Under the pieces are notes generated by a model. It saw only the letters and a program-made list of their open reading frames with translations. It did no database searches and was not told where the DNA came from. 8,873 nt of DNA, from positions 1-8,873 of the IMG/VR virus record IMGVR_UViG_2740892232_000008; one strand, written 5' to 3'. Both the position numbers and the translations under genes were made by a program. Source of the stretch: a virus (taxonomy: Duplodnaviria > Heunggongvirae > Uroviricota > Caudoviricetes). Shown one piece after another: positions 6,443 to 7,786 of the stretch (within the stretch, counting starts at the first letter, position 1; each line of letters begins with the position of its first letter).

Positions 6443-6736
6443 ATGGATATAACACCTTTCCTTCATGCGCTTTGTGCTGTGGCTGCGCAGCTACTGATTG
6501 GTCTTTTTACCGGGAACTGGGCTTACGGGGCGATAGCCGGTTGTACGTTCTTCATTGCGCGTGAACACACCCAGGCAGAATATCGCTGGATCGAAATGTT
6601 CGGGCATGGCAAGCGAATGAATATGCCGTGGTGGGGCGGTTTTGATACACGTGCATGGGATGTGGCAAGCCTGATGGATTTTGCTGTGCCGGTGGTGGCG
6701 TGTCTGCTGGTCTGGCTGTTGGTTAATCGTGGGTGA
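6443..6736 (+). CDS. Small integral membrane protein (~97 aa, two predicted transmembrane helices); function unknown
   Basis: The ORF track starts at a TTG (6428). I prefer the ATG at 6443, which has an AGGA Shine-Dalgarno and aligns with the start of the paralog at 7490 (MDITP...). Hydrophobic N- and C-terminal segments flank a conserved loop AREHTQAEYRWI...MPWWGGFD...AWDVASLMDF.VPVVAC shared by both copies. Confidence 0.6.
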   Translation: MDITPFLHALCAVAAQLLIGLFTGNWAYGAIAGCTFFIAREHTQAEYRWIEMFGHGKRMNMPWWGGFDTRAWDVASLMDFAVPVVACLLVWLLVNRG

Positions 6737-6746
6737 AAAAAGGTGA

Positions 6747-6875
6747 GCTGTATATGCAACGGAGGAAGAAACCCCGTTGCTGGAAGCCTGGAAAAAGTAT
6801 CGGATGCTGCTGAACCGTGTTGATACATCAACTGCACCTGATATTGAGTGGCCTACGAACCCTGTCAGGGAGTAA
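6747..6875 (+). pseudogene. tfa: 3'-terminal remnant of a tail fibre assembly (tfa) gene with no start codon or N-terminal part
   Basis: The frame opens at 6747 after an in-frame TGA and encodes ...[37 protein letters not shown], the conserved C-terminal signature of lambda, Mu and P2-type Tfa/U chaperones as I recall it. There is no ATG or Shine-Dalgarno in frame upstream. Confidence 0.55.
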
Positions 6876-6879
6876 TCAT

Positions 6880-6889
6880 NNNNNNNNNN
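6880..6889. other. Assembly gap or contig-join spacer (10 N)
   Basis: Run of exactly 10 n. The downstream ORF is open to the gap, so it is 5'-truncated. Confidence 0.95.
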
Positions 6890-6890
6890 A

Positions 6891-7205
6891 TCTTCGGCAG
6901 ATGGGCCAGACGGATTTCCTTATTGCGATATTGGTGGATCAAATAGGCGTGTTAACGAAAACGCATCGTTGAAAAAAATGGTTATGGGGATGCGTGTAAA
7001 GTCAGATCAGTCTACATGTGCAGTAAGTAACGGGCGTATATCCAGCGAAACAAAAACCACATGGGAATATATCCGGAGTACAGCAACCATTCGCATTGGT
7101 GGACAAACTACAGCAGGATTACGCCATTTATTTGGGCATGTGAGGAATTTTCGTCTCTGGCATAAAGAGCTAACAGATGCGCAGCTTGGGGAGGTTGTGG
7201 AGTGA
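6891..7205 (+). CDS. stf: Second, diverged copy of the side-tail-fibre C-terminal (LamG-like) tip; 5' end lost at the gap
   Basis: In-frame translation from 6891 reads SSADGPDGFPYCDIGGSNRRVNENASLKKMVMGMRVKSDQSTCAVSNGRISSETKTTW...IRIGGQTTAGLRHLFGHVRNFRLWHKELTDAQLGEVVE*. By eye it is roughly 80 percent identical in protein to 4780-5069. The 78-aa ORF at 6969-7205 in the track is only its tail. Confidence 0.75.
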   Translation, partial: SSADGPDGFPYCDIGGSNRRVNENASLKKMVMGMRVKSDQSTCAVSNGRISSETKTTWEYIRSTATIRIGGQTTAGLRHLFGHVRNFRLWHKELTDAQLGEVVE

Positions 7206-7480
7206 GAGATTTCACGTTGCGTTTCAGTGATAAAGCAGATTTCAGGGCATTTCTCAGGAAACTTAACTGGGAAGAGGACGAAGAGCTGCAGAATGCCGTT
7301 CTGGTTGATGAGATTGGTTTTACGTTCAGTGAGTCAGGTGTTTCTGCTGACGGGGAGCCTGAATACACGCGAGACGAAGGGTACTTTGTTAATATTCGTC
7401 TTCTTGACGATGGCTTTGATGAATCCGTGTTCCGTGAGTGGGTGGTTACACCAGAGCGCCCGCTCAGGGAGTGGTTTTAA
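7202..7480 (+). CDS. Small acidic protein (92 aa), paralog of the 5069-5350 product
   Basis: GTG start overlaps the fibre stop (GTGA at 7202-7205) after a GGGGAG Shine-Dalgarno, the same coupling geometry as the first copy. It shares D(R/K)ADF, DGEP and EGYFVN(I/V)R motifs with the first copy. Confidence 0.6.
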   Translation: MRDFTLRFSDKADFRAFLRKLNWEEDEELQNAVLVDEIGFTFSESGVSADGEPEYTRDEGYFVNIRLLDDGFDESVFREWVVTPERPLREWF

Positions 7481-7489
7481 GGGGAGCAG

Positions 7490-7786
7490 ATGGATATCAC
7501 GCCGATACTTCATGCAATTTGTGCTGTGGCGGTACAGGGGCTGGTTGGGTGCATTACCGGTGACTGGGCTTATGGTGCAGCCATTGCCTGTACGTTTTTT
7601 GTTGCCCGCGAATATACCCAGGCAGAATATCGCTGGATTAAGCGTTTTGGTGATGGTCACCGACATAAGATGCCGTGGTGGGGCGGTTTTGATCCGCACG
7701 CGTGGGATGTGGCAAGCCTGATGGATTTTGTGGTGCCGGTGGTGGCCTGTGCGGGATTGTATGGCTGTATGCTGATTTTTAGCTGA
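7490..7786 (+). CDS. Small integral membrane protein (98 aa), paralog of the 6443-6736 product
   Basis: ATG 9 nt after the upstream stop with a GGGGAG Shine-Dalgarno. It has the same conserved loop motifs (AREYTQAEYRWI, MPWWGGFD, AWDVASLMDF.VPVVAC) and two hydrophobic segments. Confidence 0.6.
   Translation: MDITPILHAICAVAVQGLVGCITGDWAYGAAIACTFFVAREYTQAEYRWIKRFGDGHRHKMPWWGGFDPHAWDVASLMDFVVPVVACAGLYGCMLIFS

Follow-up and report, generated by a model that had tools for sequence, protein, structure and literature searches.

Two members of an uncharacterized phage family

The DNA analyzed here is the 8,873-nucleotide IMG/VR record IMGVR_UViG_2740892232_000008 from a tailed phage (Caudoviricetes), referred to below as the window. 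Two short genes on its plus strand, copy 1 (6443–6736, 97 amino acids) and copy 2 (7490–7786, 98 amino acids), had been described in an earlier note, from the sequence alone, as paralogous small membrane proteins that close two fiber modules and as candidate superinfection-exclusion factors. Both products are matched by the profile of PHROG 1443 (E = 2.8e-58 over residues 1–96 of 97 for copy 1; E = 4e-44 over residues 1–91 for copy 2), and by this match they belong to a family that is catalogued as 'unknown function' and is uncharacterized. The same frames are annotated in RefSeq, where WP_000355602 is 100% identical to copy 1 and WP_000355614, from E. coli CE10, represents the frame of copy 2.

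The two proteins share 65 identities over 87 aligned residues (75%; BLASTP E = 3e-50). The ratio of nonsynonymous to synonymous substitution (dN/dS) between them is 0.17 at a dS of approximately 1, thus both are constrained coding sequences. The two open reading frames (ORFs) are real genes under purifying selection, and the earlier proposal of two paralogous ORFs at these positions stands. A family gene is found in 2068 of 5426 complete E. coli genomes (38%), with a median of two copies and a maximum of eight, and it is always annotated as a hypothetical protein.

Identity between the copies is spread along most of the chain: 13 of 20 positions in the first transmembrane helix, 10 of 14 in helix 2, 25 of 34 in the loop, and 13 of 14 in the early part of the third transmembrane helix. 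The last nine to ten residues are unrelated (0 of 9 identities), and they probably mark a recombination boundary within the 3' end of the gene. Both copies have a G+C content of 53%, compared with 42–49% in the adjoining fiber genes, which fits a separately exchanged module. The earlier note had emphasized a conserved loop (REHTQAEYRWI, PWWGGFD and AWDVASLMDF) between diverged helices. These motifs are present and fall in the part of the protein that is most conserved across the family. However, within this pair the helices are as similar as the loop, and only the last nine to ten residues are unrelated.

The description of the copies as small membrane proteins of an unnamed family was supported. 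Scans of both proteins against Pfam and NCBIfam gave no match, and neither the copies nor the 92- and 93-residue partner proteins encoded beside them hit a PADLOC-DB 2.0 model at E ≤ 0.1. In PHROG, only 1443 and its fragment family 34165 were recovered at E ≤ 10, with no annotated family among the matches, and distant members (from AVP1, Carin-5, phiHAP-1 and Sphingomonas) likewise match only PHROG 1443. Foldseek comparison with the PDB and BFVD yielded no match at E ≤ 0.001, and neither did a profile search of PDB sequences. Neither copy matches a holin family of Pfam or PHROG. More generally, no homology to a structural virion or lysis protein, which the earlier note had named as an outcome that would speak against its proposal, was found in Pfam or PHROG.

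A profile search of 1.84 billion representative sequences returned 432 cluster representatives, all of them stand-alone proteins of 63–146 residues with no fusions. A scan of IMG/VR recovered near-identical E. coli relatives only and added no diversity. The family is labeled hypothetical in every source, and a literature search found no paper on it; a publication on tail-assembly interference (Tai) was checked and is unrelated. Conserved antisense ORFs in high-GC loci were discarded as artefacts of the family gene itself.

Predicted fold, topology and conserved residues

An AlphaFold2 model built from a 30-sequence alignment (predicted local distance difference test score, pLDDT, 93; predicted template modeling score, pTM, 0.78) consists of three helices at residues 4–23, 26–53 and 74–96. 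In the model helix 2 recrosses the membrane and then extends as a polar stretch from R40 to F53. Given these three helices, the two-helix architecture proposed earlier is doubtful, although the record of phage 21 quotes a TMHMM prediction of two transmembrane domains.

The side of the membrane that would carry the N-terminus and the loop at residues 40–73 has a mean of 6.0 lysine and arginine residues, versus 0.75 on the opposite side (113 of 117 sequences). Because the positively charged side holds the conserved loop, the positive-inside rule predicts that the loop faces the cytoplasm. This topology conflicts with the remark in the phage 21 record, which places both termini inside. The C-terminal tail is very short (0–5 residues) and has a mean of 0.6 lysine and arginine residues.

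Among 117 diverse members H8, R40, E41, Q44, A45, E46, W72 and P83 are nearly invariant, and Y47, R48, I50, R58 and D79 are conserved in 75–89%. Each helix displays a single conserved face, consisting of H8-A12-Q16-G20-G24 in the first, G29-G33-F37-E41 in the second, and W72-S76-D79-P83 in the third.

We also considered whether the protein is a lipoprotein. The N-terminus of the protein reads MDITPFLHALC, in which H-A-L-C does not constitute a lipobox, and C11 is replaced by isoleucine, valine or leucine in most members. As the predicted helices additionally span the whole chain, this possibility was rejected. We infer that the protein resides in the cytoplasmic (inner) membrane.

Position of the gene in phage genomes

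Members of the family occur in Enterobacterales, Aeromonas, Halomonas, Cobetia, Comamonadaceae, Pigmentiphaga, sphingomonads, Devosia, Chelativorans and Desulfovibrio, and thus span four proteobacterial classes. Identity to copy 1 is approximately 45–65% at most loci and approximately 40% in the most distant ones, the Halomonas and Cobetia phages and Desulfovibrio. Where the gene lies in a phage or prophage, it is on the same strand as the last receptor-binding gene and directly 3' of this gene or its small partner, usually at a distance of 0–45 nucleotides. The earlier observation that the copies close fiber modules is therefore correct, and the link to receptor-binding genes is far broader across phages.

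The arrangement recurs in phages of very different construction. The lambda-like phage 21 carries a side tail fiber gene (stf), a gene for a 92-residue protein and then the family member, and these three genes (stf, a small gene and the member) recur in a 108-kb SSU5-type phage-plasmid. Phage 2G7b, likewise lambda-like, has the order stf, 93-residue gene, S74 fiber and member, as in the window. The P22-like phage Gally encodes a tailspike, the member and int. HP1-like (P2/HP1-type) prophages of Aeromonas and Leclercia have an S74 fiber followed by the member with abutting stop and start codons, and phiHAP-1 has the fiber assembly gene tfa, the member and the sheath gene. In P22 the slot between tailspike and int holds gtr, and in P2 the slot between fiber assembly and sheath holds Z/fun. 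Tailspike genes flank the member in a 154-kb Cobetia phage and in a 160-kb Salmonella contig with T4-type baseplate genes. The prophages of Desulfovibrio and Chelativorans also place it after a receptor-binding gene.

At several loci the gene is followed by lysis genes. A Comamonas prophage encodes a 2520-residue J protein, a 72-residue protein and the member, and these precede a lysis cassette of two small membrane proteins, an endolysin-like gene and Rz/Rz1-like genes. An E. coli prophage has the order SGNH-esterase spike, member, Phage_holin_8, Phage_holin_3_7, GH19 endolysin and spanin. In P1-like plasmids of Leclercia, two lectin-type fibers, each with a partner of approximately 94 residues, are followed by the member and then by LydB and DarA, with a gene for a 104-residue protein between the member and LydB.

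In Escherichia phage HC6 an 859-residue fiber with an S74-type C-terminus is followed by 51 codons left over from the family gene, which are not annotated (3965–4120 of the HC6 locus); the family gene is thus dispensable and can decay while the fiber stays intact. The one exception seen with respect to position is an Aeromonas jumbo phage in which a full-length member follows an apparently intein-bearing terminase gene. In Aeromonas phage AVP1 the gene 5' of the member (539–3907 of the AVP1 locus) encodes a 1122-residue 'DNA helicase/terminase' with an apparent intein-like insertion, a homing-endonuclease-like segment in the middle of the terminase. Neither the jumbo phage nor the 154-kb Cobetia phage, both with full-length copies, has lysogeny genes visible in the stretch seen.

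Members that are 57–100% identical follow S74 fibers, lectin-type fibers, tailspikes and J proteins, hence the family sequence does not co-vary with the receptor-binding protein. Taken as a whole, this distribution over six phage architectures shows that receptor-binding cassettes and the gene move together and are selected together. It encodes an accessory protein, is the last gene of the cassette, and its product is not part of the virion. A role as a virion or fiber protein was rejected, as no such match was obtained and solo chromosomal copies exist.

Solo copies on bacterial chromosomes

In sphingomonads a family gene lies directly 3' of ligA, which encodes the NAD-dependent DNA ligase, and either overlaps it or starts within 25 nucleotides. 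The neighborhood, in both genomes and metagenomic contigs, includes recN, bamD, prmA and sdh and contains no phage genes. In five Leclercia species a solo copy occupies one conserved site on the chromosome, where its neighbors are a metE-like gene and an operon for a urea-type ABC transporter and the upstream DNA varies. These copies are located approximately 110 nucleotides 3' of a terminator, and no consensus promoter was found, although a consensus scan is weak evidence. Two of the Leclercia loci share a conserved upstream motif of approximately 40 nucleotides, CCCTTCACCCG.GCCG..TTTACCCGTATGTTGCTG. Other alphaproteobacterial copies have assorted housekeeping neighbors. In four Aeromonas species a member lies within a gene block, which may be a prophage remnant or a chromosomal island, that is conserved between the species and whose neighboring genes have no Pfam match.

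Judging from these gene neighborhoods, the family would be domesticated as a solo chromosomal gene in sphingomonads and Leclercia. The persistence of solo copies at fixed sites across species argues that the function benefits a cell by itself, which in turn weighs against a role in fiber assembly or lysis timing.

Organization of the window

A reading of the two copies as a tandem pair was not borne out, as their adjacency is a scaffold join. The window contains runs of exactly ten Ns at 3009–3018 and 6880–6889, the latter of which joins two unrelated contigs between the copies. It is three draft-assembly contigs scaffolded by these two spacers rather than one continuous stretch of a genome. 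At the first join a J-type tail-tip gene on the minus strand (620–3008) that lacks its N-terminal part meets a plus-strand stf (3021–5069, PHROG 1419) whose N-terminus is lost at the contig end, such that it matches only profile positions 109–793. At the second join a tfa remnant (the last 39 or so codons) abuts approximately the last 100 codons of another stf. The genes at both joins are truncated on either side, and at the first join their orientations are incompatible. Such breaks in J and both stf genes are typical of short-read assemblies, which fail in fiber genes repeated between prophages.

Finished genomes agree. None of the 5426 complete E. coli genomes contains 5360–8873 as a single stretch. 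E. coli AMSCJX02 has the order Lom, stf, small protein, IS3 insertion element, S74 fiber, a member 100% identical to copy 1, tfa remnant, sitDCBA and host genes. E. coli CE10 has J, Lom, stf, a 92-residue gene, a 98-residue member, ykgJ, a vapA-like gene, an ompW remnant and the trp operon; in this strain the module of copy 2 ends a prophage at the ompW/trp locus. In addition, the chromosome of Escherichia ruysiae contains both module types approximately 157 kb apart. From the N spacers, the truncated genes and the finished genomes, we assign the two copies to two different prophages. Their side-by-side placement is an assembly artefact, and a genuine tandem duplication was rejected on the same three grounds.

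The stf of the first module begins with long imperfect repeats rich in alanine, serine and threonine (AAKTSETNAK...), which make up its N-terminal third (3021–3700) and give rise to several spurious long ORFs, both in the other frames and on the minus strand. It is followed on the plus strand by a gene for an acidic 93-residue protein of PHROG 1361 (5069–5350; function unknown), the partner of the lectin-type stf in an arrangement also seen in phages 2G7b and 21. The next gene (5360–6400, plus strand), immediately 5' of copy 1, encodes a 346-residue tail fiber with a Peptidase_S74 intramolecular chaperone domain (PF13884, E = 4.8e-14; PHROG 4563 'tail fiber', E = 1e-220). Between this gene and copy 1 lies a terminator-like hairpin, GGGGC-CGAGC-GCCCC, with a T run (6407–6430, plus strand). 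Copy 1 is followed by the tfa remnant (6756–6875, plus strand), which is annotated in AMSCJX02 as 'tail fiber assembly protein, incomplete'. This remnant is the scar of an earlier fiber-module exchange; it also precedes the sitABCD cargo in AMSCJX02 and lies near sitABCD in phage 21.

The second module begins with the C-terminal fragment of the other stf (6891–7205, plus strand; PHROG 1419 positions approximately 718–793), which is cut by the contig start; accordingly, the match to CE10 begins within stf. It is followed by a gene for a 92-residue PHROG 1361 protein (7202–7480, plus strand), a paralogue of the product of 5069–5350 with 42% identity, whose stop codon is 9 nucleotides 5' of copy 2. 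Each of the two PHROG 1361 genes thus follows a lectin-type (Laminin_G_3 / PHROG 1419) side tail fiber, and the same unit of fiber and partner of approximately 94 residues occurs twice in the Leclercia P1-like plasmids. The PHROG 1361 protein may be a fiber-specific chaperone.

Directly 3' of copy 2 is the terminator of the convergent ykgJ (7792–7811, minus strand). Beyond it lies prophage-end cargo, namely a gene for a YkgJ-family cysteine-cluster protein (Pfam CxxCxxCC; 7801–8235, minus strand) and a gene named in RefSeq as VapA/VapB family virulence-associated (8421–8873, plus strand) that runs off the window. In CE10 the ykgJ and VapA/VapB-family genes lie between the prophage and the ompW remnant.

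Comparison with known systems

Several characterized phage proteins resemble the family in some respect. T4 Imm (83 residues), which is also a small helical inner-membrane phage protein absent from the virion, is the only one of the three precedents named in the earlier note that is of the same physical type. However, Imm is an early gene located far from the T4 fiber genes and confined to T-even phages, whereas PHROG 1443 spans four classes and has chromosomal members. An hhalign comparison of the family alignment with Imm gave a probability of 0.4% over 20 aligned columns, and with T4 Sp (spackle) 0.2%. T5 Llp and phi80/N15 Cor are likewise encoded by small genes beside a receptor-binding gene. 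Both are lipoproteins of the outer membrane that mask FhuA and differ according to the receptor, whereas PHROG 1443 lacks a lipobox or cleavable signal, is predicted to be a polytopic inner-membrane protein with its conserved loop in the cytoplasm, and does not vary with the fiber. The precedents named in the earlier note, Imm, Llp and Cor, are thus not relatives of the family.

The family gene occupies the same kind of slot as HK97 gp15, P2 Z/fun and P22 gtrABC, at the end of the fiber module and before int or sheath, and like them it is dispensable and variably present among relatives. However, classic morons have their own promoter and terminator, and neither is detectable for the copies in the window. 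The holins T4 t and T7 gp17.5 are also small membrane proteins encoded right after a fiber gene, and in three elements the family member is directly 5' of holins. PHROG 1443 differs in lacking a charged C-terminal tail or any holin match, and its carrier phages have complete lysis cassettes elsewhere.

Possible functions of the family

We consider post-adsorption, receptor-independent superinfection exclusion at the inner membrane to be the most plausible single function of PHROG 1443, and we put it forward tentatively. The small three-helix protein would act alone at the inner membrane by means of a site of conserved polar residues on one face of the membrane (H8, R40-E41, Q44, E46, R48, R58, W72 and D79). 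A cell already holding a phage would thereby be made refractory to delivery of further phage genomes at a step after adsorption. The target would be some conserved component or property of the host membrane and not a particular receptor, since the sequence is indifferent to the neighboring fiber; the same indifference could alternatively reflect a self-sufficient protein. The family consists of small membrane proteins with neither an enzymatic nor a structural-virion signature, which favors exclusion. The position directly after the last receptor-binding gene and the dispensability seen in HC6 also count in its favor. The solo copies are consistent with a gene that protects the cell, as are positions coinciding with known hotspots for accessory genes; the slots that the family occupies hold conversion and exclusion genes in P22, P2 and lambdoid phages. 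T4 Imm provides a precedent for an exclusion gene in a phage without lysogeny.

Several observations weigh against superinfection exclusion. The exclusion proteins known so far evolve fast and are narrowly distributed, whereas this sequence stays conserved whatever type of fiber precedes it and retains approximately 40–65% identity between E. coli and Comamonas, sphingomonads or Desulfovibrio. The invariant histidine, glutamate, glutamine, aspartate and arginine residues look more like a catalytic or ion-binding site, and the predicted cytoplasmic position of the loop would rule out receptor masking. The family shows no similarity to T4 Imm or Sp, to an annotated PHROG or to a PADLOC model, and the literature search found no functional data for it.

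The expression signals also point away from exclusion. A consensus scan of 6250–7950 for sigma-70-like promoters on either strand found none compared with 2.4 expected, which is itself weak evidence. The stem of the hairpin 5' of copy 1 (6407–6421) ends approximately 20 nucleotides, and its T run approximately 12 nucleotides, before the start codon, therefore no room is left for a promoter; copy 2 starts 9 nucleotides after the preceding stop codon. For these reasons the copies look like late-operon genes rather than genes expressed from a prophage. From this layout we infer that both are the last genes of late operons, reached by antiterminated read-through. Upstream of the gene in Gally are a terminator and a weak site resembling a promoter, but promoters were counted there no more often than expected by chance.

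If the conserved polar residues do form an active site, the protein might be a self-contained membrane enzyme, or an ion channel or transporter subunit, carried as phage fitness cargo unrelated to exclusion. We regard this as rather unlikely. The protein might, for example, handle an ion, a metal or a lipid-linked intermediate via a cluster of H8, Q16, E41 and D79. In favor of such a function, invariant polar residues are placed within the helices or at their edges, and each helix has a single conserved face. High conservation across four classes, the stand-alone nature of all 432 cluster representatives (63–146 residues, no fusions), and chromosomal copies among housekeeping genes, with translational coupling to ligA in the sphingomonads, are also in its favor. 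However, no fold or family of known enzymes, transporters or channels is matched. This explanation also does not account for the precise placement after receptor-binding genes in six phage architectures, and the patchy occurrence in cellular genomes with variable flanks is that of accessory genes. Lysogenic conversion or receptor modification, in which the protein would disturb surface-polysaccharide synthesis at the inner membrane (for example at the Wzy, Wzx, WaaL or undecaprenyl-phosphate steps) such that glycan-binding fibers and tailspikes of the kind encoded beside it no longer adsorb, strikes us as improbable. The receptor-binding genes that could be typed do look glycan-directed (S74 fibers, ConA/Laminin_G_3 lectin-type fibers, pectate-lyase tailspikes, an SGNH-esterase spike), the gene in Gally occupies the slot of the P22 and Sf6 O-antigen conversion genes, and phages D3 and epsilon15 are known to encode small, hydrophobic O-antigen polymerase inhibitors. 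However, the chromosomal copy is kept in sphingomonads, which lack lipopolysaccharide; the sequence shows no co-variation with the type of fiber; known glycan-modifying enzymes are larger than this protein; and no promoter that could drive expression in a lysogen is seen in the window.

The late position of the gene also raises the possibility that it affects lysis timing as a holin partner, antiholin or small viroporin that is made last on the late transcript and permeabilizes the membrane after fiber synthesis. It lies just before holin genes in three unrelated elements (the Comamonas prophage, the P1-like plasmid and the E. coli prophage), is apparently co-transcribed with late genes in the window, and holins follow fiber genes in T4 and T7. 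Such a role is nevertheless quite improbable, as the gene stays with the fibers where the lysis genes are apart (in lambda-, P2/HP1- and P22-like phages and in large phages with several tailspikes), there is no charged C-terminal tail (0–5 residues), no holin family of PHROG or Pfam matches, and solo chromosomal copies across species are hard to reconcile with it. We consider it very improbable that the protein acts from the membrane to help the neighboring fibers or tailspikes fold, mature or attach. It does hold the usual position of fiber assembly chaperones, with tight or translational coupling to fiber genes, and its conserved loop is predicted on the cytoplasmic side, where fibers fold. 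However, S74 fibers bring their own chaperone domain, the same sequence is found beside unrelated fiber types, solo chromosomal copies have no fiber gene nearby, and HC6 retains an intact fiber gene beside a remnant of the family gene.

Returning to superinfection exclusion, a bolder form of the proposal, which we regard as speculative and rather doubtful, is that PHROG 1443 represents a new class of phage membrane effector. Members would be self-sufficient proteins with a His/Glu/Asp site that give the cell receptor-independent protection, travel with receptor-binding cassettes in every proteobacterial tailed-phage architecture, and have been repeatedly domesticated. Such an effector might close a conserved inner-membrane route of genome entry or alter the energization of the membrane.

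Significance of the family

The gene is very common in E. coli (more than a third of complete genomes) and is present in the classic phage 21, yet it has no name, function or paper. As it follows receptor-binding genes across lineages, it can usefully mark where a receptor-binding cassette ends on its 3' side; the same position also makes the family a candidate for broad, receptor-independent phage-phage interference or another membrane function. If exclusion is the correct reading, it would affect the prediction of host range for phage therapy in E. coli, Salmonella, Aeromonas and other Proteobacteria. Otherwise, the protein would still be small, membrane-bound and conserved, with what looks like an active site, and would have no known relatives. 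Superinfection exclusion is a reasonable but unproven reading, and given the conserved position at the cassette end and the putatively domesticated chromosomal copies, the family would be a worthwhile experimental target.

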